DNA of 47,322 bases from Psammoneis japonica (GCA_008632985.1 QPGO01000164.1:124001-171322), one strand, 5' to 3'. Numbered from the stretch's first letter, positions 964 through 31,592 are shown. Notes: a model not told the origin generated them from the sequence alone. A program made the numbers and translations.

Positions 964-2708
964 CTCAGCTGTGCTGCTGCACGTGCGTGGCACACCACTG
1001 GTGGTTTTTGGTGTTGGTTTCCACTCAGCTGAGCCCCATTCTCCAGCTCAGCCCACCCACTCAGCTGAGCACAATGATCCCTCATCGGCTCAGCTGAGCC
1101 TTTTGTTGAATTTTTTCTCAGCTGAAGGATTTCACTCACCTGAGATTCTTTCTTCCTTTGTTTGCAGACCCATCTCCACCCCCACCAGGGCGAAGTTCTG
1201 CTGCTTTGGTGTCTCAGCAGAGGACTGCTGAGATTGCCAGTGCTGGGAGACGTGTTGCTGGAGCTCCTCCTCCTGGTGGTGCCTCCACAGCTGCAGCTGT
1301 TGGCGGCGGCAGTGCTGGTGCCAGCGCCGCTGGAGCCCGTGGCAAGGGCAAGCGCAAGGGTGCCAAGGGCCAGAGCCAGCCCAAGAGGCACACAAGGGTG
1401 CACACCAGGCTGCATCTGCCCATGCTTCTTCTGTGGAACCTGGCATCATTCCCTTGCCTCAGGGCGAAAAGGAGCTGTTGCAGCACCTCATTGCTTGCTG
1501 CAAGGAAATTATGGATCTGAAGGTTCCGCCCACTGTTGGGGAAGGCCTGATGCCCAGCAACCCCAAGGCTGCTCACAAAAGTTTTGCTGAAAATTTGGGT
1601 GCTGTTTTTGCCTTCAAGGCGGTGTTTGGATCTGGCCAGAAGGTCCCTGGCAAGGTTTTTGCCACCATGCATGGAACAAACTGTCTGCCTGACCACGTCA
1701 AGAGGCTTCGTTCTGAGGACACTGAGGCCAATTGTGAACATCTCTGTGCCAAGTGTTTCAATGTTTTAGACAAGCACTTTCCCCTGGGACACTCCATGGG
1801 TTTTGGGGCATGGTGGGGCCGACTTCAAGCCGCAATCAAGGAGGACAAATTTTGGGCCCCCGGTGTTCATGGCTGCAATGCACCTGGAAAGGGTTTGCTG
1901 TGTTGCGGATTCCTCATCATTCTTCTCAAGCACCAAGTGGTGAAGGACCGTCAGCACCAGTTGGAGCTGGTTGTAAAACTCTAGGTTGCAGTCTGTAAAA
2001 CCAGTTCATGAAAAACCGTCGTGTCAATGCACTGAAATCAGATCTGCGCAAGACTCCACAGCACTGCAATTTCATTGCTCATTGGCCAGATGGACCAGAA
2101 ACCCTTCCATCAGGTTGGCGTTGATGTCTTGGTGCCTGAGATCTTCAACACAAACGTTGGAGTGCCTGCAGTGCTTGAGGTTGTGACAGAAGTGTTTGAG
2201 AGCCTTCTTCTGCTTTTTCTCTCTCTCTCTTTGCTTCTTTCTGTTTTCACAATGAGGAGCAAGGACCAAGCTGGATGTGGAGGAGTTGGCAGGGACTGAA
2301 GCTGCTGCATCAGGTGGGTTGGCTGCTGCTGGGTGTGGGGCTTGGCCAACCAAAGTGGGGCGCACTGGCGTCTCATCCAAATGGAGGGTGAGACCTTGGT
2401 CATTCCATCTGGTGGCATCTTCCAAGCCTTCTCTCAACTGCTGTTCCTCTGCCTCCTTTTCAAGTCTCGCCAGGCCATGCTGCATGCCTTCATCCTTCTT
2501 TGGCCTGAAATGACATGAACAAACAACAACGTTGTCAGCTGAGTGCGGTGGATGACAGGGTGTCTCAGCTGAGCCACCACAATCTCAGCTGAGGGACATC
2601 AGATGAGACATTTCTCAGCTGAGATCTTCAAACCAGCTGAGAAAAACAAGCAACAACATTCTCAGCTGAGCATGTGAGATCCCAGTTGAGCACAAGGCAT
2701 CAGCTGAG
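964..2708. repeat. Two clusters of the palindrome CTCAGCTGAG (about 964-1143 and 2535-2708) flanking a degraded TA-depleted segment; possible subterminal repeats of a decayed element
   Basis: Perfect or near-perfect copies at about 964, 1024, 1060, 1089, 1117 and 2535, 2563, 2584, 2613, 2633, 2661, 2700. Confidence 0.55.
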
Positions 2709-4244
2709 AACAACAAACACAACCGCGTGCAGAATGTGACAAGACGGCAACAACACACCACACCACACCACACCCCAAAAAGCAAGCCACAAGAAGAGCA
2801 AGAGAAGCTCACACAAAAGGCAACAGAGCAAAATGGCAGAGCCTCCACAGAGGATCAAAGAATGAAAAAGGTGTTCCACAGAGCCAGCCTGGGTTGAGGG
2901 GTTGATTGATGATGGCCAAGGCCTTGTTGCGGCGCTGTTGTGTTTTGTGTTTTTTGGAGTGGGGCGAGTTGATTGGAAATGGCACAGCACCACACAAATT
3001 TAATGCGTGGCATTGCAACACATTCCATTGTGCGTGCTGCAGTGGATTGCACAGAATTGTGCTAAGACAATGACCTCCTGCCATTGGGTCAGCACACAGA
3101 GCCGTTGTGCACTTTGTGTGGGCTTGGTGTGTTTTTGTGTGGGAGGGCACTGTGTGCCCAACCATGGAGCTGCCCTCCAACCATGAGTTCTGACCTCCTG
3201 TGCCAACAGTGCCAGGTGCGCGCACGTAGAACAAAAACAAATGAAAAGAAATGACCTCCCTGTGAAGGTCAGTGCATGGCAGGGACAGCACTGCACCGCA
3301 ACGAACAGAAAACGGCAGCGCAGGTGATGATGGATTTTGTCCACGATCAATTTTTCATAACGCCCGAAGCCAAAATTGCCTGTCTTGCCATTTTCGCAAT
3401 GAACAAGAATGACTGTGGCACTGTCTGGAAGCGGACCTTCTCCAAGTTCAAGCAGCCTCATTTGACTCCTCGAAACCAACCACAATCATGAGTCCAACTC
3501 TTTGAGAAACGAGAGCCAAGAAATTTGTAGATCGCATCAGATTGCAATGGTCGGACTGCACCGAGGAGCAGCAAATCCAAGCAAAGAAAATTCAGTTGCC
3601 GGACTTCACATGGAGCCCAGCCAAAGGCAACACTGGGGAAAGTGCTGGTCGCCACATGACTGCTTTTGAGGTGGAGTGGGAGAACTTTGTTGGCAATCTT
3701 TCAGAGCCTCATTGCACGGCATTCTTGACATTCGAGCATGTCTTCTTCGACAAGGCAGCTGTGACAAATTACATGGCGATCCGAAAGCAGCTCAGTTGCC
3801 CTGTGCATGCACCAGGCGCTGAAAAAGAAGATGTGTTGCGACTTTGTCGTTGTGAAAATTGTGAGCTGGTTTAGAGCAGAGAAAATGGGATCGTGCGAAC
3901 AGGGAATCTTGCCAAATCCCTGTTCGTTCGCATTTGGATCACCATCAAATCGATCGTGCGTTTGCATTGTGGATCGTGCGAATCAAGCCATCATGCGCCA
4001 TGCACGAGTGATGTCATCGTGTGGAATCACGCTGCCATCGTGGGCCAGACGACGGGCTAGTGTGCTTCACACGGACGCTCTCTTGGCATCCTTCTGGAAT
4101 TGCCTAAGACCCAGAGCCACGCCCTCCTGTGGTCGTGCTTCCCAGGTGCGTGTTGACAACACTACGTTGCCATGCACAAGAGGCTTGTGCACGGTCTCGC
4201 CGTGTTGTCCAGTGGCGAGGCACACTGCACACTCCCCCATGATC

Positions 4245-4830
4245 AGGGCCGTCAAGTGACAGGATGTCTTGCTGGTGACAGGGTGCAATCTGCCGCAGAT
4301 TGCACGTGTCCATCAGCGCTCCATTCTGGACATGCAACGTGCCGTTGTCACACACACGGACAACTCTGGCGGGTCCTGCACAGCTGTCAGAACCGTGCTC
4401 AGAGGATTGTTCCTGTTTGACAAGTGCCAATTGCCCTGCGGTGCATTGATGCTCCTTGCGTTTCTGATTTTCACGCTTGTTGTTTGGGTGGACAAGCTTC
4501 TGCTTTCTGGTTTCTATGTGCTTCCACTTGGCACGATGGGCAACAGACAAAACCGCATCGCGTCCGAAGACCAATTGCGTGGGACTTGCACGCGTGGTCG
4601 CATGCACCGCAGCTCCAATGGCAAAGGCCACTGCGGAGAGGATGCCACTCCATGGGTCATCTTTGTCCAGTTCCACATCCTGCACTGAAAAGGAACGTGC
4701 CATGTTGCCAAGTGTCTGGCGCACACGTTCCACTGTGGCATTTGCCTGTGGATTCCGTTTGCTTGTGGGTTTCTTCAAAATCCCACAGTCATTTTTAATC
4801 ATCTGGCTAAATTCTGCCATAAATTCTGTG
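4245..4830 (-). pseudogene. Gypsy integrase core/C-terminal fragment
   Basis: EFMAEF...NPQANATVERVRQTLGNM...DPWSGILSAVAFAI...SPTQLVFGRD. Confidence 0.88.
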
Positions 4831-4835
4831 GCGTC

Positions 4836-5406
4836 ATGAACTTCTGCCATGCGTTCAGCACACCGCACTCGAACATGTCGCACAGTTCGTCATTGGGCAA
4901 TGGTGCCGGTGTTTCTCCATCCTCCGTCACGGGTGGAAACTGAGAGACACAGCCGTTAATTTCAACAGCCCTCGTGACGCAGTCACGAGGAGAAACCTCT
5001 GCGGGCTTGCGCATGAAGTGTCGCAGACAATGCTTCTGCAACAGTGCCGCCCCATGTGGGAAGATACTTTCCTTTAGCTTCGCGACGCATGCTGCATGCG
5101 CAGTGTTGGTTTGGGATGCCTGCTTGTCAGCGGCATTGTTAAATGACGTCAGAGCATCGCCCTGCAGTGGGTCACGCATGAGGGCAATTTCGCTGGCCCG
5201 GTCGTGATGTTTTGTCCTTCGTGCACGCGATCCACGTTGCGTAGAAAGATCAGGAGTGTCTCGCATGTAGCCGTGGAAAGGTGCGGAATGCCCATCTCGT
5301 GCGTTGGACTGTCCGGATCAGTGGGGTTGTTGCGTAGCTTGAACGTCTGGTGCTCGCCCTGCTGCAGCTCTTTCTTCTCCGGCCGTGCGACAATCCGCTT
5401 CTTCAT
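4836..5406 (-). pseudogene. Gypsy gag fragment (frameshifted)
   Basis: FKLRNNPTDPDSPTHEM...GQNITTGPAK...LQGDALTSF...RHFMRKP...LPNDELCDMFECGV resembles diatom Gypsy gag. Confidence 0.75.
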
Positions 5407-8400
5407 GGTCGTTTTAAGATTTGTGGTCCTGCCAACATTTCGCAGTTTCGTTTCTGTAGATTTCGTTACCTTGCACAACATGCGGGAGCAACATCACTGT
5501 GCCCTGTGCATGTGCTGGGCGCTGAAAAAGAAGATGTGTTACGACTTTGTCGTTGTGAAAATTATGAGCTAGTTTAGAGTAGAGAAAATGGGATCGTGCG
5601 AATGGGGAATCTTGCCAAATCCCCATTCATTCGCATTTGGATCGCATCAAATCGATCGTGCGTTCGCATTGTGGATCGTGCGAATCAAGCCATCACGCGC
5701 CATGCACGAGTGATGTCATCGTGTGGAATCACGCTGCCATCGTGGGCCAGACGACGGGCTAGTGTGCTTCACACGGACGCTCTCTTAGCATCCTTCTGGA
5801 ATTGCCTGAGACCTAGAGCCACGCCCTCCTGTGGTCGTGCTTCCCAGGTGCGTGTTGACAATGCCACGTTGCCACGTACAAGAGGCTCATGCACGGTCTC
5901 ACCGTGTTGTCCAGTGGCGAGGCATGCTGCACAGTGGCATCTGTTCCGCCCATGCCAGTGTCCTTTTTCAGCACTGTGTTGAGAGCTGTCATGAAGGTTC
6001 CCAGGAAGAGAACCACAAAATGCTTGACATTTCATCTTTCACTCTGAAGGATCTGCCAAAACCAATCCAGAAGCGATTCATTGCGGAGGGTGTCACCAGG
6101 TGCAATTCTTTGCAACTCGTCCAACTCTTTGCTGGGATGGAGGACGACCTGTGTTCAAAGCTCACACCGTGCAAAAAATCTGCAGACGCGGATGTTCGTT
6201 GCACTGATGTCAAAACACTTTTCAAAAGATGTGTCCAGCAAAACGAACCCGGTCTCATTTCCTGCTTTAGGGTTGGCGGCGAGTTTGCTGAGAATGCCAT
6301 CCTTGAAGGCCCCCTTGATGACGAGAGGTGCAAGCAAATTGTGTCAGAAAGAGGCGGCAAAGCAAACATCCATGCCATGATCCTAACCGGGGCTTGTCAT
6401 TCAGACAACGATGATCACCATTGGTTTCTACTTCAAAACACTCACCAGGGTGATTGTTTCAAGATCATTGATGGGGAACATTTGGCGCCATGCAATGCCA
6501 CTGTAAGTTTTGCTTTGTCTGTTGACATGTCATTGAAAGGCAACCTACAATGTCGTCATTGGCAAGCACTCCGAGGCGGCATTCGATGTGGAAGAGTGCG
6601 CAGCGAAGTTTGAGGCAGAAGGGCAAAGCAGAGCTTCTGAGGACATGCAGTGGGGCTGCTCATGTTACGTGTCCTGTTCACCCCAAATGACAAGTCTAAT
6701 TGCACGCCAATCACTCTCTGGTTCGGCTCATTTTCACGCCAATTGGCAGATTCTAGTGGATTTTGACCTTGTTCTGTGACAATTCTGTTGCTCTGGCAAA
6801 CAAGTGCCAGCCACCAGTGGCTTGCAGTTGTTCTTTTTAAGCCATTCCATCATTTTCATTGCACATTTTTACATGGCATCTGATTGTTCTGTGCAAAGAT
6901 GGGCTCATTGCTGGAGATTGCACCTCTTGGAATTTGATGCTTTTTTCCTTCCTTGCATGAACTCAACGTTGCTCTTGCACCCAGAACTCTCTTTGCACTT
7001 GTGAACAGGCTCCTTTCAATTCTTCTGCAAAGTCTTTCTCTGTTGTGCTTTGGTGTTGCTGTGTTTTGCATCACCCAACACAAAGTGCCTGTGATTTTGA
7101 TGTGGGTGATGGTCAATGACCAAGTTTTGCTCTTTTGCAATGGCACATTGCACAGCACCCCTGTCAATGCTCTGCCAATTTGACCATTCTGAAGATGAGC
7201 AGCAAGTTCAGAAAATGTCTGCCAGATGCCCTTGGGTTGGTCTGGAAGGTGCAGGAGAAGCTGCAGAACCACAGCAAGAACCACAACATGAGCACACAGG
7301 TCTTTGTGTTGTTTTTCTGAGAAATTTGATGCTTTCCATCTTTGTTGCAGCAACCGTGTGCTTTGACCTTATGCTCCATTGTGCTGCTGCAGGGCCTCTG
7401 GCAGGGATTGTGTGCAAGAGCCAAACCCATGAAAGCCATGCAAAAATTGCACCAGGCAATCTCCAGACTGCCCACTTGATGTTTTGCTTTGGGAGAAGGG
7501 GCGTCACCAGTCAGTGCAGCTGGCTGAACAAAATCTGCCTGTCAGTGCATTTTTTTTTGTGGTTTGCCAGCACATTTTTTGCACTGAGAAGCCATGAAGC
7601 CCATTCAGAATTTACCACAACTGGCAAAAACCCCAAATGCACTGATTGAATGAAGGCAATTGTGCCATCAACTTTGCTTGATGCGGGTTGTTTGTGAAAG
7701 TGGCTTGGAGCTCACACAACAGCTGCTCAGGCCCTCTTGGGTTCTTCCCAGGATCAAAGTCTGGGGCCATGAAGAAGTGCCAGTGGTTGGGCATCCTTGC
7801 CAGAACCCCAAGAAATCATTGACACTGAGCCAGTGGCCCTGCTTCTGGGTGTGCCAAAGAAGTTTATTGGAGAACCAGCAGCGGTGGAAGACCAGCAGCA
7901 CACATCTGCAGATGAGGAGCACAACAGAGAAAACAGAGATGTGTTGCCCCAAAATGAACTGCCACTGCTGCTCTTGAATGAATGGAGTGGGTGCTGATTT
8001 CATGCACTTCACAGCCTTGCTTTTCCTCTCCAGTTGCTGTTGCTGCAGCTCACATCTTTGACGACAAAGCCAATCATGCCTGCTTTTCAAAGTGCTGAGA
8101 GATGCAGAGACACTGTGTGCCAAGAGAATGTGGCAAACAACAAACAATGACCACCAAAGCCAACAAGAAAGCACCCAAACATCCCAGCAAATGCATGTGC
8201 TCATTGCATCTGGAATCATGATCATCATGCTGAGTGCCATGAGGAGGCTGTTGACCAATCAAGGAGGAGTTCATTTTCTCAATTTTGATGGACCCTGTTC
8301 TTTGGGCTTTGGCCTGAAAATGCAGAGCACCAGCAGGCTTGGGTGCACCTAAAAGCAAAAGATTCAAGCAAGTGGAAAGAGGACAAAGCACAGGCCAGCG

Positions 8401-8734
8401 CCAATGTGCTCCACAGCCTTCACACTTTGCACACACGGATGTGAGGGGAGGAGCATCACCATCAACTCAAAACTTGTTCTCTGCTTTTGGGTGTCATGGT
8501 GCAATCACTCATTGTGGCTGGCACAAGCTGCGTGAAGCCAGGCAAAGGCAGATGAGGCAGGTTGCTCTCAGCCACAATGACAAGGCAGCTTGCCACTGTT
8601 CCTGTGTTGATGGGGCAGTCTCAATGAATGCAAAACCTCTTCAATCTGACTGCGCATGCAGGAGACATCCTGGCTGGCCTGAAACAACAACAGCGGGAGT
8701 GCAACAAGCTGACAGTGCGTCTGCCACCTTGGAG

Positions 8735-9009
8735 CAATCTTGAAGGTGCAATGCACTGGTGCTGTGCACATGAACCATGATCCTCAATTGCGCACAGCAA
8801 CCAAAAGTGAGATGGAACCACTGCACACAGATTGTTTCAAATCACATCACAGCATCTCTTGCCACTCTCACAAAATCACCATCTGCAATCCAACAAAGCA
8901 CTCTCCAATTTCTCCAAAAATGGCCAAGCTCATTGTGTTTGCCCTGCTTTTTGCCGCTGTTGTCTTGTCGACCACCACGACCATCAAGGAGGACAATGTG
9001 GTGCATTCC
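8735..9009 (+). pseudogene. Degraded 5' fragment (upstream region plus signal-peptide start) of a secreted-protein gene; paralogous to 26396-26680
   Basis: Shared blocks aaccatgatcctcaat, tttcaaatcacatca, ctctcacaaaatcaccatctgcaa, gaggacaatgtggtgcattccc; ATG at 8920 reads MAKLIVFALLFAAVVLS. Confidence 0.6.
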
Positions 9010-9181
9010 CCCCTTCTTGCCCAGCAAGTCAGTGCAATCCAAAATGTCTCATCTAGAGTGCGGAATTGCTCAAGATTTTCTCAATGGTGTGCATTGCAAA
9101 TCATCTCCAGGAGCACACAGGCATGGCCCCAATGCAGGCGACAAGGGTCAAAACCAATTTGAACATGGAGAATCTGTGAAG

Positions 9182-11010
9182 CCAAGCGCACTTTCTTTGA
9201 ACAATTGATGGGCCCCATTTGTTGTGTTCATCCTTGGTGATCCACCTGCTGTCCTCAAAGTGGTCTGCATTGGAAAGGAGGATTGAGCCCCCAATCCACG
9301 CCAAATGCTTTTGCTCAGGAGGAGCAGTTGCACAGACTTTCACACTTTCTGGAGCAAGGGCCTCAATTTGTTCACTCGGCCTTTCTTCAATGCCTTCAAA
9401 CATGGTGTTTCCGCCAGCCAACACAATGTTGCCATGCACATCCTTCCAAATGTCAGAATCACACTTCACAATCAAATCATGCACCAATCTGTGAATCCCG
9501 CATTGCTCTGAACCTGTCAAATTGGGTTTGAACATAATTTCCAGTGCACGGAATCGTTCGTTGCCGACAGCAATGACTTGACCATCAGGCAGTTCACAGT
9601 TCTGATCTTGTTTGGATGCCTTTGTCATGTCTGCCTCAAAGTCTAGAGCCACGAAGCAGCATTTCTCCTTGATGTCACGGACAATCTCTTTTTCGGCCAA
9701 AGTTGTGAATGAGTGACCGCGCTCTGTCAGGATCTTTCGCAGACAGTCTGTGATGTCTTGTCCTGCAAGATCTGGCCTCAGCGCAGCATGAGGAAGCACA
9801 CAACCCTCACAAATTGGAACAACGTGGGCAACACCGCAGCCAGAATCGAGAACAATCCCGGTGGTTCTTCCAGTCACATGCAGACTGAGCACGGCTGTGA
9901 TTGACACATGGAGTTGTGGGGTGTTGAAGGTTTCAAACACGACTTGTGTCATCTTCTCCCTGTTTGCCTTCGGATTGAGAGGGGCTTCGGCAAGCAACAT
10001 GGGGTGTTCTTCAGGAGCTGCGTGGAGTTCGTTGCAGAACGTGTGGTGCCACATTTTTTTCCACATCGTCCCAATTGGTCACAATGCCATGTTCGACAGG
10101 ATGTTTGATGGTCAGCATGCCACGTTTTGCCTCGGCTTCATCACCAACAGACGCACTCCAGGTCCAGGGTGGGACCTCGTGCTGCTGAACTGTGACATTG
10201 ATGGTTTTTTTCATCGCGTCATGTGTCACGCACGCAGATTTCTACATGATTTTTGTGACATTTTGCATCATTTTACGGCGCCAATGGGAATCTTTCAAAA
10301 ATGATGTAAAAAGCACAAAACAATTGTGGATGCCTGCAGAATCCACATGTTTTTGTGCTGAAACTGACATGTTCACACGATTTGTGCAAAAACAGACTTG
10401 ACTGTTGTTGGGTCAGGCGTTTTTTTGCAAGTGCATTGAAGAAAAATGCACCTGATCAGAAAACAGTCAAGTCCATTTTTCGCAAAGTTAAAAATCACCA
10501 AGGACAGACAGACAGACTTTTCAATGATTGTCTTGGCACTGTTCCACACATTTCCACGCAAATGACTCTACAGCGTGAAAGATTGCCATTGCTTGTTGAG
10601 CGATCTGTCCAAAAACTTTTGACATTTTTTGTTGCAGCGCAGTTCTGTGATGTCTTAAGAATCTCGTGAGGCAGGCGCATTTGCAAAAACGTCGAGTGAC
10701 AAGAGGCACAATTGCAGCACAAACTTGGCCGTTTGTTTGATGTTGAAGACAAACATGTCCATCATCAGTTGGATTCTTGCACTGCGGAGCTGGCATGTAA
10801 AATTCTGCGGGCCCAATGTCACACGGAGTCCCGCCTGGGGCTGGAACGCGTCAACACAAGCACCCTTTTGTCCCACCCTCACAATCACGCCTGGGTGTTT
10901 GAGATGGCCTGCAATTGATGGAAAGACTGCTCTGGGAGCATCGTCACCAGCAAAGCCGGCCTTTGTGGAGCCTGAACCATTGTCCATCACAATTGCAGAT
11001 GTGTCACCAA
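9182..11010 (-). pseudogene. ACT: Divergent actin pseudogene, interrupted by a MITE, frameshifted, with Tyr replaced by Cys/His
   Basis: [27 protein letters not shown] at 10.9-11.0 kb; [82 protein letters not shown] at 10150-10852; frameshift near 10060; the codon at the expected stop position is TGG (9182-9184). Confidence 0.93.
10150..10852. mobile_element. MITE/non-autonomous TIR element (703 bp, hypermutated copy) inserted in actin
   Basis: Imperfect TIRs gacgcactccaggtccagggtgggac / gtcccgcctggggctggaacgcgtc; 4-bp TSD AACA at 10146-10149 and 10853-10856; inverted homologue of 32428-32817. Confidence 0.9.
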
Positions 11011-11218
11011 GCTTGCATCCCTCCCCAGTCTTGATTCTGTTGCGCACCTTTTCAAGAATGTTGGGAGAGCGATGGGTCGGCCATCGGCCAACTGGAGACC
11101 AGCCGCCCCATCTCGAGCTCACTTGTGCACCTGAAGGCCTGGGCACTTGAGGTTGGCATCTTGGAAGCATTCCCTTCCATTGTCTTCTTGAATGCCACCT
11201 TCCGGTGGTGTCGCAGCA

Positions 11219-12701: not shown

Positions 12702-14786
12702 TGACCCATGCAGAAATGGGGAACAAGTGCTCAAACCGCAGAGATTGAGATTTTCTGTGTGTGCAAAAATTGCAAGCTTGTTTTGCGCAGAGCATGCGTG
12801 TGTGCAACAGCAAGACATGCGGAGTTTGAGTCCTTTTGCGGAATCAGTCACACTCGGCACTGCGTGCATCCTGTGCATGCCTTTCACACAAGGCGAGTCA
12901 CTTGTGTGATGGCCAGTCACGCCGGTCTCAGTCGCATGGATCTCCCGTGGACCATCGCAGGTCTCGCACCAGGAGTCGCGTCATCCAACACGCGCTTCTG
13001 CGGGATCAGCGTTGCTGCGGACAGCCTGCAGATGCAGGAAAGTGGCATCATCGGCGGCCACGGTCGGCAGGGATGCCTGATGCACTCGCCCCTGTGACAA
13101 GGTCATGCGAGTGACAGAAGGGTCCCACTGCTGGAAAAAGGACATTTTTTGGTGTGTCCAAAAAACCAGCGCACATGCCTTCTCATGCACGAAGGATGTC
13201 ATTGTCATTGTCACTGTTTCAGTGGACATTTCCCCACTCAGGCGTGCGTCAGTTGTTTTCTGAGCTGACGTCATGCAGTGGAGCATGCACTTCCTGTTGC
13301 GCATGGCATCTGACATCATCGAAGCTCACTTCTTTGACTCGCTCGGCGCTCTGCTCTCACGACTTGGTCGTTTGGGGCCTTGCACGGAGATCATCGGATC
13401 ATCCACCGCACCACTCTTGAGGGTCATCTTGAGGGTCGTCTTCATGAGGTGCGGTGCGGCAGGTGAGGCAGAAGGTCCACGACGTGTGCAGGATGCTGCG
13501 CATTGGAACATGCACATGAGCATTGGCTCCAGGCCTTTTTCACAGGCCTTGCAGAAATGTGATGTCCACTCTACATCCCAGAGATGTGGAACATGTGCCA
13601 CAGGCAATGTCACGAGTCATTTTCTGTTGACACTTTGTCTTGGGCCATTTGGCATGTCTGGGGCTAAACTGCTGTTTTCGCATGGTGAGTTTGCAGCACT
13701 GCACCTGCTGCCTTCTTGGCAGTCATCGGTGTCAGCATCTTTCTCACCAGCAATGAATGAAATTTAGAACAAGATTTTCGAATCGCTCACGAAACGCGAC
13801 ATCTGCGGCGTTCGTGTCGAGCAGGTTGAACATTGGAGTTCTCATCTTGCACTGACATCACGAGGCATGCCGCATTCGACGTGATCGATTCTCTCGTCGT
13901 TCGGCATCGCTTTCAGTGCATCACCGCCATTGTCAAGCGGTGAATTCTTTGAATTTTGCTCGTGCGCGTTCTTCTCACCGCACGAGTGCCATTTTGGCAA
14001 TTTTTTGTTTTCTGCTGCACTCCCAACTGAACAGTCATGGAGAACAGGAAAGTGGCACAATGCAGCGTCTTGCTCTTCTCTGCAGAACGGCTGACAATCA
14101 TGGTGAGTTGAACAAAAGCCATTCTTGCACTTGCCGGAAGTGACATTGCCATGACCTGTGCAGAAACAGGGAACAAGCACTTAAACCGCAGAGATTGAGA
14201 CAATTGTTGAAAAGTCTGTCTGTCTGTCCTTAGTGAATTTTAACTTTGCGAAAAATGGACTTGACTGTTTTCTGATCAGGTGCATTTTTCTTCAATGCAT
14301 TTGCAAAAATGCACCTGACCCGATGACAGTCAAGTCTGTTTTTGCACAAATTGTGTGAACACAACAGTTTCAGCACAAAAACGTGTAGATTCCACAGGCG
14401 TCCATGGTTGTTTTGTGCTTTTTACATCACGGGTCATTTTCGAAAGATTCCTGTTGTTTTCTGTGTGTGCAAAAATTGTGAGCTTATTTTACGTAGAGCA
14501 CACGCATGTGCGACAGCAAGACATGCGGAGTTTGAGTCCTTTCGAGGAATCAGTCATGCTCGGTGCTGCGTGCATCCTTCGCATGCCTTTCGCACAAGGT
14601 GAGTCACTTGCGCGATGGCCAGTCACGCCGGTCTCAGTCATGTGGATCTCCCGCAGACCATCGCAGGTCTCGCACCAGGAGTCGCGTCATCCAATGCGTG
14701 CTTCTGCTGGATCAGCGTCGCTGCGGACAGCCCACAGACGCAGGAAAGTGGCATCATCGGCGGCCACGGCAGGGATGCCTGCTGCA
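12702..14786 (-). mobile_element. Second internally deleted Gypsy-like LTR retroelement
   Basis: LTRs 12702-13084 and 14152-14786 (the latter has a 256-bp insertion at 14201-14456); TG...CA ends; 4-bp TSD ACAC at 12698-12701 and 14787-14790; PPT-like caggggcgag on the minus strand at 13085-13094; gag-like remnant MPNDERIDHVECGMP resembles LPNDELCDMFECGV of the first element. Confidence 0.85.
14201..14456. repeat. Internal MITE segment (inverted match to 10282-10530) inserted in an LTR, containing an internal hairpin
   Basis: Reverse complement aligns end to end with 10282-10530; contains gacttgactg...cagtcaagtc inverted repeat; absent from the partner LTR. Confidence 0.85.
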
Positions 14787-15171
14787 ACACATCTGCTCAC
14801 ACCCGTCTGTTTGTTTTGCTTGCGAGTGACAACAGACAATGCACAGGGGCGTCAAGAAAATTTTGCCACTTTTTCACTCAATTTCGTAAAAAACAATTGG
14901 CACTCTCAACATTTGGAGTTGTGAGAAAAGTGTGGGTGATTCGTCTTGTTTTTCCAAGAAAAAGCACTTTTTTGGCAAATGAAACCATGCAAAAACCAGT
15001 GTGTTTTATCTCAAAACTAATTGTGCCCCAAGCTGTGAGCAAATGATGCCATGTGTTGAGGTGGCAAGGGTGCAAAAGTGTGGGCCGTTGCACTGGACAG
15101 ACAGAAATCTTGAACATTTCTGGCGGGAATCCAGAACTTTGTCTTTAACATGAATGATTTGAAAATGTTGT

Positions 15172-18100
15172 TGACAGAAATTGAGGGCAAATGGCAAGAA
15201 TTCAAACAACAACTCCTTGCTGCTGTCTAAACAGCAGATGAGTCTCCGCTCAGAGACCGTTGCAGGAGCCGAAGGACGTGCAAGTCGGCACAATCGGGCT
15301 GCTGTTGTCATTCTTGTGAGCCTTGTGGCTCAAAAGCAAACCACATCGCGCCGAACGCGCGGAACTAAAGCACACAAAACTGTGCGCGGCAAACTGAACA
15401 GCACGCGACATTTCGCGCGCACCTGAATCCTGTTCAAATCCTGTCACTCCCCAGTTTGCTTGAGGAGCCACAGAAACAGACTCGACTTTGGATGGAATGA
15501 AGTTCCAGAACATGAGGGGGCGGAGAAGTCCCAGATTTGGGAGTGACCCCAATGCTTGCTGAGAATGTCAGCAGGGTTGCGGGAGCCTTCGATGAAGTGG
15601 AGCTCAAGGCAACCAGAGGCAATCGCCTCACGCACACGGTGGAACGATGGTGCGGCACGTCGCTTGTGTAACTTGGAGTGCGGGATGGTGGCACTGTCTA
15701 CAACCGACTTGTTGTCACGAACATGCAACTGACATTGCGGATCGGGACGCCAAGGTGGCGCAGGGTGATGCGCAGGTCGACAATCTGTTCGACACAAGTC
15801 CTTGCGGCAACAAATTCAGACCCGCAGGTCGCAGTCTCCACAGTGGCTTGCTTCTTGGAGAACCAATCAGCCGGGAATTTGTTGAGGAAGTGGAGCATTC
15901 CCATGACAGAGCGTCCGGTGAGCATGCAATGGTGCAAGTTTGCATCGACGCAGTGGGTTGCAGTGGCGAACTTGCCAAGGGGTGGTGGAGCGTCCTTCAG
16001 GATCATCTCCTCTGCTTCGCCACACACGGAATGCATCCATTCACAGGCCGGAGCAGAAAAGATCCGAATGGTCGGGCTCTTCCGTGCGAACGCGGAGAGC
16101 GCCGTGTCGCATCTTGGAGAGGTGCCCACAGACGCGTTTGGCACGATCCAAGTGGCCTTGACGGGGTGCAGCTCGGAAGCTGGAGAGTGACATGACGGCC
16201 GTGTTTGATGTCAATTCGACCAAGGGACACTGCCCATTGGAGTGAACCAACAAGAGACTGGAACTTGTGAATGCCATCGGGCTCCAGCAGTTCGGAAGTG
16301 TCCAGTTCGGGGTGGTCACCCTTCTCCAGAGGTGACAGGGCGTTGGTGGTGGGTTTCTCCCCAAACGGTCGGGTGCAGCTGTCGACCATGCGCTCGATGT
16401 ACTTGCGCGGAGACAGGCACAAGGTGCCGTCGGGATCCCGGGAAAAGTCGCAACCCAGATGGAACTCAATGGGTCCCGCACCCTTGAGCTTGAACTTGTG
16501 CTTTTCCGTGAGAGTGTCGACGAAAGATTGAGGGTCCTTCACAGCAACGGCGAGGTCATCCACATAAACGGCAATGCATTCACAGTGGTCGCCGTTCCTG
16601 CGCATCCAAATGTTGGGTTCGGCGCGGCAGGGGAAGAAGCCTTCAGCTCGCAGGCAGTCGGCGAAGCGCTCGTGCCAGCGGAGACGGAGCTGCGCAGTCC
16701 ATGCAGGGCCTTGTGGATGACAAGGATGTGTCCTTCGAGTTTGCCAAATTCGGGTCCGGCTGCAATGTAGAGCTTCTCCTTGGTGGTGGCTTCAAGGTGG
16801 GCATTGCCAATGTCGGTGGCCCATGTCTCCAACTCGTTGAGTTCGGCCAGGAAAATCATCAGCCGAAGGCCACGGAGGGAGACTGCTCCGGAGCAGACAC
16901 TGTCAATGGGTATGTCCATGAGGTGCCCATCAGCTACGAGTCGTGCCTTGTGGCGACCGTCGTGTTTCACGTCGTGCACTGGGTGCACTCGGATCTTCTT
17001 GTGTCCGGCAGGAGGAGTGGAAGACTTGGAGGGCCCGCAGTCATGGAAGACTTCGTATTCCTCGAGTTGGTCCATCTCAAGATTAGTTGCATTTCCCCAT
17101 TTGCAGTTGCCGTTGCGTTCGTCCAGTGACATGGCGTGTTTGCAGTTCCGGGGAACTTCGCATCCGCACTTGCAGCGAGGTGCAGTGCGGAAGGAGCAAA
17201 GCTTGGCTTGGTTGGCCATGCGGAACAGCTTCTTCTGGCGCCTCGCGATGGTGCGGAACCGCTTCCAGCCATCAGTGTCGAGAAGTCCGTTCTCTCGTGC
17301 ACAGATGGCGCAGGTGACGGGGTCATCCTTGGCGATGATGGCAAGAGGCTCGGACGTGATCTCCCCACTTTCCCATTCAAGCACAATGTTGTAGCTTGAG
17401 CCTTTCCAGGTTGGGTCATGAGGCTTCAGAGGTCCTTCGTGTGACACGATGCGTCGAAATTTCCAAACAGCAGTGTCTTCGTCTTCTTGCTCAATGTGAT
17501 TCATGATGTCGTTGCAGGCAAGGACTTCCTCGCATTCATCATTGTTGACAGAGCAGATGAACTTAGTGAGCTCGGGATTGCCGTTCACTTTCCATTCGTG
17601 GTCTTCGACGACGATGCGAGCTCTGTGGCGTTGTCCGTCCTCTTGTGGCTGCATGAGGAAGGTGCGTCTGATGATGTCTTGCGGATCGAAAACTGGCATC
17701 TTGGGTGTCCTGATCTCCCCATCAGGAGAATCGACGGGGTTGTCGTCATGGCGACATTTGATGATGGGTTCAGGTGGCTCCCCATCAGGAGGATCAAGAC
17801 GCAGGTTTCAAACGGCAGGATCGGTGGTGGCGGATCGTACGTTGGACCGGCAGAGGATCTTCTGAGTCTCGTCAGAGAGAATCTTGAAGGTCATCTGGTG
17901 GCCGACGTGCTCAGCAATGCCAACAAAGCGTCCACGCAACTCACGGGATTCGGACGGCCAATCGGAGTCATCGAGGTGGAAGCACACGGGTTCCCACCAG
18001 TGAAAGCGAAGCAATGGGCTGATGTCGGGGTGGAGCCAGTGAGAGTCTCGAGGGGCGTGCGCCAGTGGAGACGTGGGGACGCTGTGTGGTTGAGCACAAA

Positions 18101-21100
18101 GCACACGTGCATGAGCACCAGCAGCCATGTGTGGGCAGGCGAACCGAAACGATCCATGACAGTGTTTGCCATGCGCTTCACGGTCTGGTGTCGACGCTCG
18201 GCAAAGTTTTGGTGTTGCTGGTGAGGCTCACTTTGCCAGCTGGAGATGAAGAGGGCTCGTAGAATCCCGAGCACCTTGTTGCTGATCTCAACTTGAGCAT
18301 GGTCGCCAATGAGTTTGGATGGGGCACCACGCTCACGGATCTGATCCTCGAGTGTGTTGACAAACTCCTTGTCCATCTTGGTGCCATGGACGTCAGTGAC
18401 GGTGGACTCGGTGCCAACAAACAGTTGGGCGCTGGTGCAACCAGAGTCGACGGCCGGGGTGTCGGCACAAACGGTGTCAGTGGCGACAGGCTCGTTGCGG
18501 CGGTGCACATTAAGGGCGGGGTTGGGTGATTTGCAGGCCTTGCGAAGGTGTGTGCCGGCGGGCATGCGGGCGCACTGCGTGGTGCAGTCAAAAGTACGAC
18601 GGACCGCATCGGCAGGTAGGAAGCCAAAGCAAGGCCGAAGAGACTCGAAGGGGGGGTCCTTGGGCTGTACAGTGCGCTCCGGAGGTGGAACGTCATCGCC
18701 CTGGGGGCCAATCGCATGCAGATGACACTCGCAGAACACGTCGTCGTTCGGAATGAGGTGATCATCGAGGGCGGACGCGTCATCAGCAGACAAGGAAGCG
18801 GACATGATGGTCTCGTTGACAACAACACAATGACGGCAGCAAACAGGTTGGCAGTGGGATCGTCCTGCAGGTCAGAGATCGCGTTGCACCACTGGTCGTC
18901 GTCAGTGACAGAGTGATCGAGGACGGAAGGATCCCATGTGTCATCACCGGGTGAGGATGACATGGGGCAGGGTGTCCCATTCGGCATCAGTGCAAGGTCG
19001 CATGGCAACACAAGGCAGGCCGCCCTTGATGTCAATGGGGATGACATGGCCATCAGGAGTGGCAATGCGTTGCAAGCCGTTGGGCACCTTGACAGAGCGA
19101 TCGTTGACATCCTGTTTGTGCCACTCGAGCTGGCCGCAGGAATGGATGGTCTTGCCCTTTCCCGTGTGTGCGCACTGATGGAGGATGGCGATGACGGGAC
19201 CACGCTGGGTCTCAATGACGGCACCCGTGGTGACAACAGGGATGTCCACCAATTGATGGTCGTCAATGCCCTGAACGTCGACTTGGCGAGAGGTGCGTGC
19301 AATGACGCAAACGTCGTCGCCAGCAATGCCGCCGTTGGCCCCACGATCGACTAGAGCACCAGTGCGTGTGGAGCGATGAGCAGAGGCAGAGCAAATGACA
19401 TTGTGGTCATTGACGCGACGGCAAGTGCGGCCGTCAAGTTCCATGTCATCGGCAGAAGCTGGCGGGGTAGAGGGAGTGGCGGATGGCCCCGGTCGACTGG
19501 TGTTGGGGGCTTGGTTAGGAGACAACAGATGGTGCAGATCACCGGGTGGCAGTGGCCTGCGCTTGGTGAGGTGCGCCAGGATGGGATTGTCCGAAGTGGC
19601 ATCCACACTTGGAGCGGAGTCACCAGAGTCAGCAGGAGTCGTGTTGGACATGTCAAGGCGTTGGTCGTGAAGGTTGGCCGTAATGGACTCATGGCAGTTG
19701 CTGGCTCACGGATTGCGGGGAGGCGGACGAGAATGCCCAAGGATGATCGCCTTGGAGGAATGGGGCAACGAATCCCAAATCCGTTGGTGGTCGGGAGGGA
19801 GACGTTTCCATTGGTCACCGGTGAGGCTGGGACCACGGGTGTGGGCAGCATTGGCCTGAAGGACGTCAATGTCGCTGTCAATGTCGCAGAACACATCGTC
19901 AGACGGTTCCTCGGAGTGGACATCGTGTGTGCATGTGGCACGTCGGGGAGCTCGAGGTGTCGTCTTGGGTTGAAACGCACTGTCGCATTGAGCCGCCGCA
20001 GAGAGGAGCAAGCCACAGCATTGATCGCATGTGAGGCTCTTGCCACTCTGCGTACGATGCTGATCAGCTTGGTTCTTGACAGCACGGAGTTCCTCGACAG
20101 GGTGTGCGGCATTCTCAAGCATGATGCACTTTTGTCCTTCAGAGAAGTGGTCACTGGCCGGGATGAGTGCCTCGTGCTTGCGCAACTGATCTTGCCAATG
20201 AAGGATGAACCCGTGGGTCGGACCTTTCCAAGTGCCATCACCAAGACGTGCGGTGGCAAGGTGCGTGAGCAAGGTGGAGGACTCGACAGATGCGTGGGTG
20301 GAGGCGAGCGCATGCTCAGACAAGGCGTGGCAGACGGTCTGGGCGTCAGAAGACCCCACATTTTCGCGAATGAGAGCCTTGCCCTTGTCGGTGAGAAGAA
20401 CGCGTTCGAAGACGGCAAACATGTGCTTTTGCTGTTCAGCAAAGAGCAGTTTGTCTTCGGGGCTGGTCGGTTTGTACGACGAGTCTAGAATGCACTCGAC
20501 GTCTTGGGCACGGGCTTGTGCCACAAGTGAGGTGTGCCAAGTGTGCCACTGCTTGTCAGATTTGAGAGCCGTGAAAGCGGTGGGGTCACACTTGATGCCT
20601 CGCTTGAAGTCTCGCACCAGGTCGCGTGCCTTGGTCGGGTTGGTGACATGCGGAGGTGCGAGGGGTGAGCTGCCGATGGACACAGGGACACAGAAGACAT
20701 GCAGTCGGGGCTCTGAGGCGGCAGGCAAGGAACTCGTCATGCGTGAACAACGAGGAGTCATTGGCAACGTCAAGACCTTCGTGTGCTTTGACAACGCACA
20801 GACTGGTTGGAGCTGCTAACATGTTCTTATAACCGTGGGGCAAAGGGATCACATTGGCGCCGTTGTCGCACTCAAGCGAGTGATTTGGGACGGCATGAAC
20901 GTGAACAGTTCTTGATGCGAGTCCGTGCCATCTTGGGTCAAAGCCAAACGAAGAGGGCTCCCAGCACCTTGGGCAAGCACGGTTCCAACAACGTGCTCGA
21001 AACCATCGGTTTGTTGCTGACGAGTGAGAACCATGGCAGACAAAAGTGGTGTCAGGACAAGCAATTCTTGTTGGGAAGCGAAGGCAGACTTGAAACTTGG

Positions 21101-22220: not shown

Positions 22221-22957
22221 GTTGTCATCCAGATGAACAAACACATTCATTTTCCTGCAAAAAATGTCTCTCAAAAATCAACGCTGCTTCTTTTGCAATG
22301 TGCCGGCATCTTGTGTTTGCACCCCGCGATTTGCGCATCCGTTGCCATCAAAAAACTTTGTTTTTCATTTTGACATGGACTCTGAGCAACAGAAAAAAAT
22401 TGACACAGCAAAATTTGAGACACCTCTGTCTTTTGCTTGCTGTTGTCAATGGAGTGCACACTTGTGTCAGTGAACCCACACACCCTTTTTTGAACAAAAA
22501 CACAAAACAATGCTCTCACAAATTCAAGCAACCGGCACTGTGGTGTGAACTTGGGGTGCCGATCTGCGCAAACAACGAAAAAGAAAATGGCTGCAAAACG
22601 AGCCAGGAGGTGCAGGCCTTTTGCAACATCTTTTAGTTTGCGACTTACCACTTTGGCACATAACCCACTCTTTGGGCCCTGATGGGTAGACAGCATGCCA
22701 AAGCGACATGTCAATCGCAGTTGCAGAAATGCCTTCTGTAGCATGCACGGTGAAAAACATCTCTTTTTAAAGAAGTTTTGTCAAAACGTATAAGTGTGCG
22801 GTATAAAATGCGTCTTTTTCAACCATTTTTGTCAAAAGCTAAAAGTACAGCATGCCCGGACGTCAACGCGCGCAAGATCTGCCCAGGTCTCCATTCCATC
22901 GGTTCCATCAAGGCAGAAGAAGGCAGAAAACGCCAACAAAACACACGAGCAACAAGC

Positions 22958-26280: not shown

Positions 26281-26395
26281 CAGGCTGACAGTGCATGGCT
26301 CGATTGAGGGAACGAGGATTCCCAGTGGGTGCATGTCACACCACGATGATGACTCTTGCTCTCTTGCCAGACTCACTTGCATCCACCACCTGCAA

Positions 26396-31367: not shown

Positions 31368-31592
31368 CACCATCAATCCTTTTCAAGAAATGTGACATGC
31401 TGCACCTCAACACAACATTGCTGCATCTCATCACAACTTTGCAACTCTTGCTCTCATTGTCACAGATCTGCTTTGTTGTCACTTTTCTGTTGTCAACCCT
31501 TTTCAAGAAGCATGGCATGCTGCGCCTCAGCATGACATTGCTGCATCTCATCACAACTTTGCAACTCTTGCTCTCATTGTTGCAGCTCTGCT
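31353..31592. repeat. 120-bp tandem duplication
   Basis: Period 120 (tttcaagaa at 31381 and 31501; gcaactcttgctctcattgt at 31441 and 31561); many differences are CA vs TG. Confidence 0.88.

Follow-up and report, generated by a model that had tools for sequence, protein, structure and literature searches.

Introduction

Fungal RIP converts C to T, mostly at CpA, which becomes TpA, and leaves the DNA that it strikes rich in TA and poor in GC. Retroelements can also be edited before they integrate: APOBEC3 acts on their cDNA and ADAR on their RNA, in each case on one strand, and the same edits then appear in both LTRs.

The closest described process was first reported in 2026, in a single alga. 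In mutation-accumulation lines of Bigelowiella natans, two integrated viral regions had gained 231 mutations, of which 230 were A>G/T>C changes, all on TpA (Mettrop et al., bioRxiv 10.64898/2026.01.13.699255). According to that preprint, the mutations arise de novo, episodically between lines and at a rate ~1000 times the background, and the genome holds 124 TpA-depleted, CpA+TpG-enriched clusters that are enriched for reverse-transcriptase and DDE domains (10.64898/2026.01.13.699255). The same preprint reports an ADAT2-like candidate, proposes a deamination of adenine that is untried experimentally, mentions that ADAR prefers a U before the edited A, presents transposable elements only as potential targets, and contains no occurrence of the terms LTR, retrotransposon, gypsy or CpG (10.64898/2026.01.13.699255). 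Retrotransposons as a target class were left open by this sole paper on TpA hypermutation; the footprint reported here covers retrotransposons as well as a pseudogene and unique DNA.

The window, i.e., the whole stretch of 47,322 nucleotides that was analysed, holds a Ty3/gypsy-type element. As in B. natans, the changes are almost only A:T>G:C, fall on TpA only, yield TpG or CpA depending on the strand, are confined to regions, and amount over the long term to TpA depletion with CpA+TpG enrichment. Indeed, 27 of the 47 windows of 1 kb satisfy the two cut-offs set in the B. natans preprint (a TpA rho of at most 0.43 with a CpA+TpG rho of at least 1.52, rho being calculated anew for the window). 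The A>G/T>C spectrum is found together with a separate CpG C>T component, and the restriction to TpA is paralleled by 0 of 28 LTR transitions outside pyrimidine-purine (YpR) dinucleotides. Compared with the NCLDV region of B. natans (TA 3.3%, rho 0.45), the window is far more deeply depleted (TA 1.2%; rho 0.04-0.12 in blocks), and its TA loss is accompanied by CpG loss, a topic that the preprint leaves aside. Moreover, the B. natans mutations were seen live, whereas the process in the window is known from its footprint, with rates that are relative only (TA ~15 times CpG).

The other systems resemble this locus in part. Like fungal RIP, the process makes single-dinucleotide transitions at repeats and mobile DNA, leaks into unique DNA and wrecks coding capacity; unlike RIP, it removes TA and raises GC, the opposite direction and product. 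Like CpG decay in methylated transposons, it yields TG or CA, on either strand, from a dinucleotide that is its own complement, and it makes LTRs more divergent. The deamination of 5-methylcytosine, however, cannot remove TA, whose fitted loss proceeds at ~15 times the CpG rate. CpG decay is the minor component here, with 5-6 LTR sites and 16 sites at which the copy departs from the family majority. Transition clusters in retroelements are shared with APOBEC3 and ADAR, where they are deaminase-driven; unlike for those enzymes, the target is integrated chromosomal DNA, since the two LTRs differ and both strands are hit.

Structure and Insertion of the Element

A repeat search and blastn recovered direct repeats at 3797-4231 and 5500-5933 with 93.1% identity across an alignment of 435 columns. 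The LTRs themselves end at 4229 and 5931, because a CAGT target-site duplication (TSD) occupies 3793-3796 (left copy) and 5932-5935 (right copy), both read from the sequence and in accord with a run X1 contig. Both LTRs have TG...CA ends and lie on the minus strand: the left LTR (3797-4229), which retains 4 TA and 29 CG, is the 3' LTR in element orientation, and the right LTR (5500-5931), which retains 9 TA and 31 CG, is the 5' LTR. The element is assigned to the minus strand because the polypurine-tract-like run directly upstream of the 3' LTR (4230-4238, GGGGGAG on the minus strand) is read on the reverse complement.

The internal region encodes on the minus strand, at 4272-4832, the C-terminal part of integrase, which makes up the final ~187 residues in a pol of the Ty3/gypsy type (phmmer, blastx). 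This fragment matches polyproteins of ~1050-1100 aa carrying reverse-transcriptase (RT), RNase H and integrase Pfam domains (phmmer E 4e-63) and aligns to their C-terminal ends in blastx. An N-terminal gag-side fragment lies at 4913-5385, also on the minus strand (aligned by blastx, E 2e-13, with residues 46-112 and 147-204 in protein P0148; a Pfam search of this fragment gave no match). Of gag the copy retains only the N-terminus, and of pol only the C-terminus: in blastx across the internal deletion junction (4821-4829), gag-side matches, which reach residue ~204 in P0148 (1497 aa), give way to matches with the final ~187 residues of pol homologs of ~1070-1100 aa. Family contigs have loose ends at 4821 and 4829, and the sequence that other family copies have at this junction is absent from the window copy. 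No primer-binding site was identified in the element (3797-5931). The features of a Ty3/gypsy element are nonetheless found in its TG...CA ends, 4-bp TSD, polypurine tract and homologs with PF00078, PF17917/17919, PF17921 and PF00665, which we take to be the RT, RNase H and integrase domains of gypsy pol, in that order.

An empty-site contig from run X1, which is not independent evidence because X1 probably is the sample behind the window assembly, runs from 3793 straight to 5933, leaving out 2139 bases. These correspond to the element (2135) plus one TSD copy and therefore to a single precise insertion. This result, with the matching 4-bp TSD, bears on the idea that the LTRs were never identical, either through recombination or gene conversion between diverged family members or through RNA or cDNA editing before integration. 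The family is highly repeated and its variable places are mostly transitions (233 vs. 36 transversions), such that imported tracts would resemble the observed changes. On the other hand, changes occur on both strands and in both LTRs, RNA-level editing yields identical LTRs through the established mechanism of reverse transcription, and the TA-specific spectrum would still have to be explained. We give this idea a very slim chance; the changes in both LTRs and on both strands support the proposal of the initial annotation that the changes arose after integration and on both strands.

Divergence of the LTR Pair

The LTR pair is an internal, polarity-free measure of the mutation process because the copies were identical at insertion. 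The initial annotation had read the divergence as lying almost only at TA, CA/TG and CG sites, with about 9 TA-vs.-TG/CA, 7 CA-vs.-TG and 6 CG-vs.-TG/CA sites, one indel and no clear transversion. Alignment and tabulation by dinucleotide confirmed this spectrum and these counts. The 30 differing columns comprise 28 transitions, a 1-bp indel and one C/G column adjoining the indel. No clear transversion is left, as that column can be re-aligned as a CG/CA transition plus the indel; family contigs have G at 3941 (803.6/937.1 depth) and omit one base at 3942-3944. All 28 transitions fall within YpR dinucleotides, a context that covers 239 of the 432 aligned positions, and the chance of such an outcome for 21 independent sites is ~0.55^21 = 3.5e-6. 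The variable YpR sites are CA/TG (7), TA/TG (5), TA/CA (4), CG/TG (3) and CG/CA (2, or 3 with the indel-adjacent site), and the unchanged ones TA/TA (2), CG/CG (27), CA/CA (28) and TG/TG (42).

At the 193 non-YpR positions, 0-1 differences are found, which agrees with the earlier view of an element too young for background substitutions. The overall K2P distance of 0.072, set against this near-zero non-YpR divergence, also bears out the warning that LTR dating overestimates its age: naive dating would inflate it at least 4.7-fold. In integrated retrotransposon DNA, TA loss far exceeds CpG loss, which itself far exceeds all other change.

Comparable spectra occur in two other LTR pairs of the window. 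A second direct-repeat pair (12751-14786; copies 12751-13084 and 14457-14786, 88% identity) has 32/32 transitions at YpR, including 9 CA/TG doubles. A copia-type element on the minus strand (15172-22220; RVT_2 matches at 16006-17807), with LTRs at 15172-15446 and 21944-22220 (90%), has 20/25 transitions at YpR and 6 CA/TG doubles.

Direction of Change

A four-state Markov model of YpR dinucleotides, in which one rate is assumed per dinucleotide class, was fitted to the LTR pairs. For the gypsy pair, TA loss with CpG loss attains lnL -202.14, the same value as the full model, whose own fit puts the TA-gain and CpG-gain rates at 0; the fitted rates are a = 0.663 for TA loss and b = 0.044 for CpG loss, a ~15-fold ratio, and a share of 0.204 among 120 YpR sites is assigned to ancestral TA. 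A TA ancestor is compatible with the counts (TA/TA 2, single 9, double 7). A CG ancestor for the doubles fits badly (CG/CG 27, single 5-6, double 7), as double hits at 7 CpGs are unexpected when 27 CG/CG sites survive; a special, very hot CpG class could, however, imitate CA/TG doubles in this model.

The opposite polarity, a RIP-like defence in which TA is gained through C>T at CpA and the CA-vs.-TG sites stem from CpGs deaminated on opposite strands, accounts for the 9 TA-vs.-TG/CA sites, and linked repeats are the classic substrate of RIP. TA gain with CpG loss nevertheless reaches only -213.75 in the gypsy pair, 11.6 lnL units worse than TA loss, and the ranking is repeated in the two other pairs (-158.39 vs. 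-164.56, 6.2 units; -120.45 vs. -126.98, 6.5 units). The region is also very TA-poor and CA/TG-rich, the inverse of a RIP footprint.

Protein homologs give polarity, as they are outgroups that the process cannot touch. An actin pseudogene on the minus strand (9104-10078; Pfam Actin E 7.6e-84), aligned to 21 actins, keeps 177 of 242 conserved columns, including Gly 17/17 and Trp 4/4, and none of the 12 conserved Tyr (TAY): 11 of them have become CAY (6 His) or TGY (5 Cys), against RIP-like change, and one is Phe. Similarly, the integrase part of the gypsy element keeps 73 of 91 conserved columns overall vs. 0/2 Tyr and 2/7 Ile; the Tyr are replaced by His (CAY) or Cys (TGY), and T precedes most A>G changes. 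The 261-aa frame of this fragment has 0 Tyr, 13 His and 9 Cys, whereas Tyr makes up a median of 3.8% (minimum 2.4%) in the 120 homologs. Repeat copies lying in different blocks of the window point the same way: 40 sites have TA in the copy from a TA-normal block and CA/TG in the copy from a TA-poor block, with 0 reversed, an asymmetry that also speaks against TA gain; CG sites split 28 vs. 3. With the model and the composition, the lost Tyr codons and these cross-block sites uphold the initial claim that TA is the earlier state, decaying to TG/CA, and the TpA>TpG/CpA spectrum published for the B. natans lines supports it too.

The family consensus, which was expected to settle the polarity, gave a partial answer. 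Among the 40 listed of 271 variants, 2 of the 16 TA-related LTR sites were applicable, and both favour T or TA as the earlier state (family majority TA at 3868, 74%; T at 5865, 71%). At 3 sites (4164, 5242, 5335), TA stands in the window against CA/TG in most family copies, as a RIP-like defence would have it, and the reverse holds at an equal number of sites (3868, 4400, 5865). This test is unclean because all family copies decay alike. We regard the RIP-like reading as exceedingly improbable.

CpG loss is real: 16 of the 36 best-supported window-vs.-family differences have CG in most family copies and TG/CA in the window copy, and TA loss is therefore not the sole process. CG is also the family majority at all 4 CG-variable LTR sites with family information, which are polarised as CG loss and not as A>G at CpA. 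Ordinary 5-methylcytosine deamination could be imagined to suffice if a very hot CpG subclass gave the CA/TG doubles and further C>T gave TA, and CG obs/exp indeed falls to 0.07-0.26 in some blocks. A CpG-only model, however, cannot yield TA-vs.-TG/CA sites, and its lnL collapses. At the 4 internal CA/TG dimorphic sites, the counts demand a minor TA allele at 2 (4698/4699 and 5274/5275) and a CG allele at none. Deamination alone also predicts an accumulation of TA, which is nearly absent, and TA-poor DNA with near-normal CpG exists (14383-22591, rho TA 0.12, rho CG 0.85). Such an account is very improbable.

Block Structure of the Window

The window is a mosaic of four TA-poor blocks (rho 0.04-0.12, CA/TG obs/exp 1.5-1.8) and four TA-normal blocks (about 0.55) with sharp borders. 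The gypsy element lies in a TA-poor block (1-22591; TA obs/exp 0.08-0.12, CA/TG 1.47-1.69), and one TA-normal block (32321-35999; obs/exp 0.42-0.67) holds TA-rich partners of repeats found in TA-poor blocks. Over the whole window, TA makes up 1.2% of dinucleotides. The raised TpA and lowered CpA/TpG of fungal RIP were sought as a candidate signature and rejected on the whole-window obs/exp values (TA 0.20, CA/TG 1.5) and the model comparison.

TA-poor blocks include the gypsy and copia elements, the actin pseudogene and a single-copy flank (3300-3513; depth 65, one contig), and long intact ORFs coincide with TA-normal blocks. Both the flank and this coincidence would suit a genome-wide, untargeted neutral bias against TA, with selection keeping TA only in genes. 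TA is, however, kept in all three codon phases of TA-normal ORFs (e.g., 20/28.3 and 33/56.3 expected in phase 3-1) vs. 0-4 TA per phase in ORFs of TA-poor blocks. In the mostly synonymous phases 2-3 and 3-1, it stands at 0.3-0.7 of expectation vs. ~0-0.25. Repeat copies in TA-normal blocks keep 49 TA vs. 4 in their TA-poor partners, and the block borders are sharp. An untargeted bias is accordingly improbable.

Proposed Mechanism and Implications

Spectrum, polarity, block structure and rate ratio are established here, and post-integration, TA-directed, regionally targeted hypermutation is, in our judgement, a highly probable explanation. An internally deleted Ty3/gypsy-type element, lying on the minus strand, would have entered a repeat that was mutated already, its two identical LTRs carrying ~24 TA dinucleotides each. 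The chromosomal copy would then have been hypermutated regionally by an A:T>G:C transition turning 5'-TA-3' into TG or CA, where either strand can be hit because TA is its own complement. The 7 CA-vs.-TG sites would represent a TA that took a single hit in each LTR, the two hits falling on opposite strands. TA loss per site would run ~15 times faster than CpG decay (CG>TG/CA), with other changes still at or near zero. The targets would be kilobase blocks with sharp borders, comprising retrotransposons, a pseudogene and single-copy DNA, with blocks of long intact ORFs being spared; within 47 kb, a targeting of foreign DNA looks the same as one that takes in all non-genic or silent DNA. By analogy, we infer that the process is the one seen live in the B. 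natans lines.

How TA is attacked is a more tentative matter. Enzymatic deamination of adenine in the TpA of DNA, with inosine read as G, is a plausible route to which we assign somewhat less than an even chance. Alternatively, thymine could be the target, with a T modified at TpA (e.g., a 5-hydroxymethyluracil-type base) mispairing with G and giving the same TA>TG/CA outcome. The palindromic nature of TA makes A>G and T>C indistinguishable from sequence, and dinoflagellates carry 5-hydroxymethyluracil preferentially at TpA. The window offers no positive evidence for a thymine target, a search for a dinoflagellate spliced-leader motif gave 0 matches, and the B. natans preprint names an ADAT2-like candidate and proposes A-deamination (10.64898/2026.01.13.699255); we hold a thymine target to be unlikely.

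For adenine deamination, the affected blocks may be silenced DNA in which a silencing mark guides the reaction, and the sharp block borders are concrete places to seek both the guiding mark and the enzyme. A broader reading, which in our estimate falls only just short of an even chance, is that the source organism is other than B. natans and that protists more widely possess a "reverse RIP" defence, in which chromosomal DNA is edited at TA and chromatin blocks are the target. Retrotransposons, pseudogenes and adjoining unique DNA would thereby lose their Tyr codons and TAA/TAG stops, at ~15 times the pace of CpG decay. In a host other than B. natans, this defence would cease to be a curiosity of one species.

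Sequence annotation is affected as well. At ancestral TA sites, the consensus of a family shifts to CA/TG; the change of Tyr into His or Cys weakens homology searches, and the loss of TAA and TAG leaves long open frames on both strands for ORF finders to report. Homology searches and exact look-ups brought up no near-identical annotated protein. For two ORFs of the window, no viral relatives were found. The 646-aa ORF has its best named match, at 28%, to a pelagophyte protein.

Structure of the Gypsy Element and Its Insertion Site

The internally deleted Ty3/gypsy-type element is bounded by direct repeats at 3797-4231 and 5500-5933 (93.1% identity across 435 columns), the true long terminal repeats (LTRs), with TG...CA termini, ending at 4229 and 5931. 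A 4-bp target-site duplication (TSD), CAGT, is read from the sequence at 3793-3796 and 5932-5935, and one contig, whose shorter side is only 28 bases long, links 3793 to 5933 and omits 2139 bases, exactly the length of the element (2135) and one copy of the TSD. The element is thus a single clean insertion and its LTRs were therefore identical at integration. The empty-site contig probably derives from a paralogous empty site, since the flank itself is repeated: 3514-3792 and 5975-6500 show 2-3-fold repetition in run X1, the sequencing run that supplied the family contigs (depth 111-218 vs. 65). Given these repeated flanks and one diverged flank contig with 40 differences across 253 bases, the element is nested within an older repeat.

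The 1.27-kb interior reads on the minus strand, and a purine run immediately precedes the 3′ LTR when the element is read this way. A gag-side part (5385-4913, minus) aligns with residues 46-204 of a 1497-aa gag-pol homolog, and a C-terminal part of pol (4832-4272, minus) aligns with the C-terminal ~187 residues of ~1050-1100-aa polyproteins, whose precomputed Pfam domains are reverse transcriptase, RNase H, and the zinc-binding and core domains of integrase, as in the gypsy gene order. These partial alignments, together with the points at which contigs of other family copies part from the window (4821 and 4829), indicate that an internal deletion has removed most of pol from this copy. The closest gypsy relatives in a homology search are metagenome proteins of at most 60% identity, and one scan of public metagenomes with a 20-base LTR word devoid of CG and TA returned 0 loci with other family copies. 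In run X1 the family is clearly highly repeated, with a summed contig depth (not to be equated with copy number) of 12,000-55,000 over the element vs. 65 on the unique left flank.

Differences between the LTRs

Of the thirty differing columns in the LTR alignment, 28 are transitions, one is a 1-bp indel and one, adjoining the indel, is C/G; this last column re-aligns as a CG/CA transition plus the indel because family contigs carry G at 3941 and lack one base at 3942-3944. All 28 transitions lie in a pyrimidine-purine (YpR) context, though only 239 of 432 aligned positions are YpR (probability for 21 independent sites all being YpR, ~3.5e-6). The YpR pairings comprise CA/TG 7, TA/TG 5, TA/CA 4 and TA/TA 2; CG/TG 3, CG/CA 2 (3 with the indel-adjacent site) and CG/CG 27; and the unchanged CA/CA 28 and TG/TG 42. 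This recount agrees throughout with the approximate counts in the initial annotation (nine TA-vs.-TG/CA, seven CA-vs.-TG and six CG sites, one indel, no clear transversion), whose proposed tabulation of substitutions by dinucleotide yields the same exclusive YpR context. A manual tally along each LTR revealed no obvious runs of same-strand changes.

Outside YpR, 0-1 differences are found in 193 positions, in line with the earlier view that the element is too young for background substitutions. The LTR Kimura distance is 0.072 and the 95% upper bound for non-YpR positions is 0.015; conventional LTR dating therefore overstates the age at least 4.7-fold, which bears out the warning that such dating would be badly inflated.

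Direction of Change

Sites that read CA in one LTR and TG in the other (doubles) can be ascribed to a TA or to a CG ancestor. With TA as ancestor, the classes of unchanged, single-hit and visible double-hit sites number 2, 9 and 7, which a per-copy loss probability of ~0.72-0.76 fits well, whereas with CG as ancestor of the same doubles they number 27, 5-6 and 7, which no single rate fits. In a four-state continuous-time model with free ancestral composition, TA loss plus CpG loss (lnL -202.14) equals the full model, in which the rates of TA gain and of CpG gain both fall to zero, while a gain of TA as in RIP, combined with CpG loss and having as many parameters, reaches only -213.75. Two other LTR-like pairs likewise favor TA loss over TA gain (lnL -158.39 vs. 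-164.56 and -120.45 vs. -126.98). Per path, the fitted exit rate of TA (0.663) is 15 times that of CpG (0.044), and the ancestral TA share of 0.204 of 120 YpR sites corresponds to ~24 TA per LTR, an ordinary density; the right LTR retains 9 of its own. In three repeat pairs the copies are divided between a TA-poor and a TA-normal block of the window; in these pairs, 40 sites are TA in the normal-block copy and CA or TG in the poor-block copy, with 0 reversed, and CG sites split 28 to 3.

Proteins provide outgroups that lie beyond the reach of the process. The TA-poor block with the element also contains an actin pseudogene, on the minus strand at 9104-10078 (Pfam Actin, E 7.6e-84), which was aligned with 21 of 120 listed hits, i.e., actins of ordinary length with 91% coverage. 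Conservation in 90% or more of these 21 actins marks 242 columns, of which the pseudogene keeps 177; of the 12 conserved tyrosines it keeps none: six became His (CAY), five Cys (TGY) and one Phe. Among the 65 replacements, TA loss alone suffices for 23 and CpG loss alone for 10, and other changes are needed for 32. In the integrase part of the element, compared with 60 of 120 homologs, 73 of 91 conserved columns are kept, as against 0/2 Tyr (both now Cys) and 2/7 Ile, and T precedes most first-position A>G changes. The 261-aa pol fragment contains 0 Tyr, 13 His and 9 Cys, Tyr having a median share of 3.8% and a minimum of 2.4% among the 120 listed homologs. Model fit, protein outgroups and the 40-to-0 split together support the initial proposal that TA was ancestral and was lost after integration on both strands.

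The actin gene lies in two minus-strand pieces, 9104-10078 (Pfam Actin 76-409) and 10658-11218 (Pfam Actin 3-48), with repeat copies at 10148-10856 between them. The pieces hold 0 Tyr, 16 His and 14 Cys, and the gene is therefore a hypermutated pseudogene; its identity to ordinary actins is only ~65%, its best matches in a homology search reach ~65-69%, and a Symbiodinium entry shows 50%.

The family consensus, which the initial annotation had named as the means of detecting TA gain, gives a divided answer. Polarity was taken from the 40 best-supported of 271 variant rows, 36 of them within the element; short contigs were assigned to the best-fitting LTR, a procedure that masks sites where the LTRs differ. 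Among these 40 rows only two TA-variable LTR sites are informative, the family majority carrying TA at one (3868, 74%) and T at the other (5865, 71%); four CG-variable LTR sites are informative (3941, 4173, 5629, 5901), each with a CG majority. The two TA-variable sites thus favor an ancestral TA; across the element, TA in the window faces TG or CA in most copies at three sites (4164, 5242, 5335), equal in number to those pointing the opposite way (3868, 4400, 5865). The test is not clean here because every copy decays, so that once more than half have lost an ancestral TA the majority reads CA or TG. At the internal CA/TG dimorphic sites 4698/4699 and 5274/5275, the depth with A at the second base exceeds that with C at the first, which requires a minor TA allele; none of the internal dimorphic sites in the best 40 rows requires a CG allele. 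Plain CpG loss makes up 16 of the 36 in-element rows.

A Mosaic of TA-poor and TA-normal Blocks

Across the window, observed/expected ratios (rho) are 0.20 for TA, 1.51 for CA, 1.49 for TG and 0.70 for CG. Steps of 1 kb and density segmentation divide it into TA-poor blocks (1-22591, 25087-27028, 29729-32320 and 36000-44815; rho TA 0.04-0.12, CA/TG 1.47-1.76) and TA-normal blocks (22592-25086, 27029-29728, 32321-35999 and 44816-47322; rho TA ~0.42-0.67). Codon phase argues against a uniform bias that selection counters in coding DNA: the four long ORFs in TA-normal blocks retain TA in all three phases, including mostly synonymous ones (20, 20, 33 and 18 at phase 3-1 vs. 28.3, 28.3, 56.3 and 43.0 expected), and in the three ORFs of TA-poor blocks each phase has 0-4 TA. 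The loss is therefore regional. Nor is it confined to repeats, the single-copy flank at 3300-3513 (one contig, depth 65) being likewise TA-poor. The element has a rho TA of 0.12-0.18 in its left half and 0.30-0.38 in its right half, with 0.12-0.14 in its flanks, which fits a younger insertion decaying within an old, already mutated block. Both strands of the TA-poor blocks carry numerous long ORFs that overlap, because the loss of TA has also removed TAA and TAG.

The losses of TA and of CpG can be told apart: rho TA and rho CG are 0.12 and 0.85 in block 14383-22591, and 0.07 and 0.23 in block 25087-27028. Some TA-poor stretches (1001-3000, 7001-9000, 25001-27000 and 31001-32000) are nearly CpG-free (observed/expected 0.07-0.26) and others keep 0.8-0.9, hence two separate decay processes with different histories.

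Each TA-normal island contains a long intact ORF (566, 334, 640 and 555 aa from ATG), three without a Pfam family and one AAA-ATPase_like (PF09820) with mostly prokaryotic look-alike clusters; sulfatase fragments occur at 44710-45506. IMG/VR scans of two TA-normal ORFs found no viral relatives, Rfam families numbered 0, and neither a homology search of three proteins nor exact look-ups of four ORFs found a near-identical annotated protein, the best named match of an intact 646-aa ORF being Pelagophyceae sp. at 28%. A dinoflagellate with 5hmU is unsupported as the host, a spliced-leader motif having 0 matches at up to 3 mismatches.

Other Repeats in the Window

The YpR pattern is not private to the element. 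For all ten other repeat pairs detected by self-blast, P2 to P11, transitions at YpR out of all transitions, followed by transversions, are: P2 (12751-13084/14457-14786) 32/32, 4; P3 (copia LTRs, 15172-15446/21944-22220) 20/25, 0; P4 48/60, 7; P5 18/21, 3; P6 24/31, 6; P7 15/25, 20; P8 17/18, 3; P9 11/17, 1; P10 7/7, 5; and P11 3/3, 0. CA/TG doubles are seen in every pair from P2 to P10, P11 being without.

Differences are again mostly YpR transitions within the short tandem or near-tandem repeats at 586-713 (a 63-bp unit present twice, 586-711, 95%), 31353-31600 (a ~120-bp unit, 85%) and 40989-41314 (spaced copies of ~108 bp). The copia-type element (15172-22220; RVT_2 at 16006-17807, minus) has 275-bp LTRs that are 90% identical and a GC content of up to 0.59; its long open frames on both strands, e.g., 19354-20484 minus and 19355-20485 plus, exist because TAA and TAG stops are gone.

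Mechanism and a Precedent in Bigelowiella natans

These data show a TA-specific A:T>G:C process acting on both strands of chromosomal DNA after integration, in discrete blocks, at ~15 times the per-site rate of CpG decay and with other substitutions at or near zero; the initial observation is confirmed and its interpretation supported. A plausible though tentative candidate would be an enzymatic, silencing-guided editing of the adenine in TpA, the resulting inosine being read as G. Modification of the thymine at TpA, which would then mispair with G, would lead to the same outcome, the two targets being inseparable by sequence because TA is its own complement; we consider it the unlikelier route. 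Among TAs surviving in TA-poor blocks, ATAT accounts for 0/185 (27/393 in normal blocks) and ATAC is rare, while TTAA, CTAA, GTAA and CTAG are in excess. The pattern points to a quicker loss where a pyrimidine follows the edited A (TAY), a context similar to that preferred by TadA-type deaminases; this reading is tentative because, on our own inspection of the alignment, only four of nine polarized single-hit LTR sites fit.

Full-text searches for TpA>TpG/CpA hypermutation found only one preprint, which places 231 of 302 nuclear point mutations in mutation-accumulation lines of B. natans within two integrated viral regions; of these 231, 230 changed A to G or T to C, every one at TpA, at ~1000 times background and in some lines only (bioRxiv 10.64898/2026.01.13.699255, Mettrop et al.). 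The preprint also describes 124 genomic clusters of 1-kb windows depleted in TpA and enriched in CpA and TpG, themselves enriched for reverse-transcriptase and DDE domains, and puts forward an ADAT2-like DNA adenine deaminase as a hypothetical agent (bioRxiv 10.64898/2026.01.13.699255). This kind of process was thus already published in 2026, for the viral insertions of a single alga. The preprint text contains none of the words LTR, retrotransposon, gypsy or CpG (bioRxiv 10.64898/2026.01.13.699255); new here are LTR retrotransposons, a pseudogene and unique DNA as targets, as well as a cleaner rate comparison. The window may represent B. natans itself, through an unannotated region or another strain, or a second host, a reading toward which we lean slightly. 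With rho computed independently, 27 of its 47 1-kb windows pass the cut-offs of the preprint.
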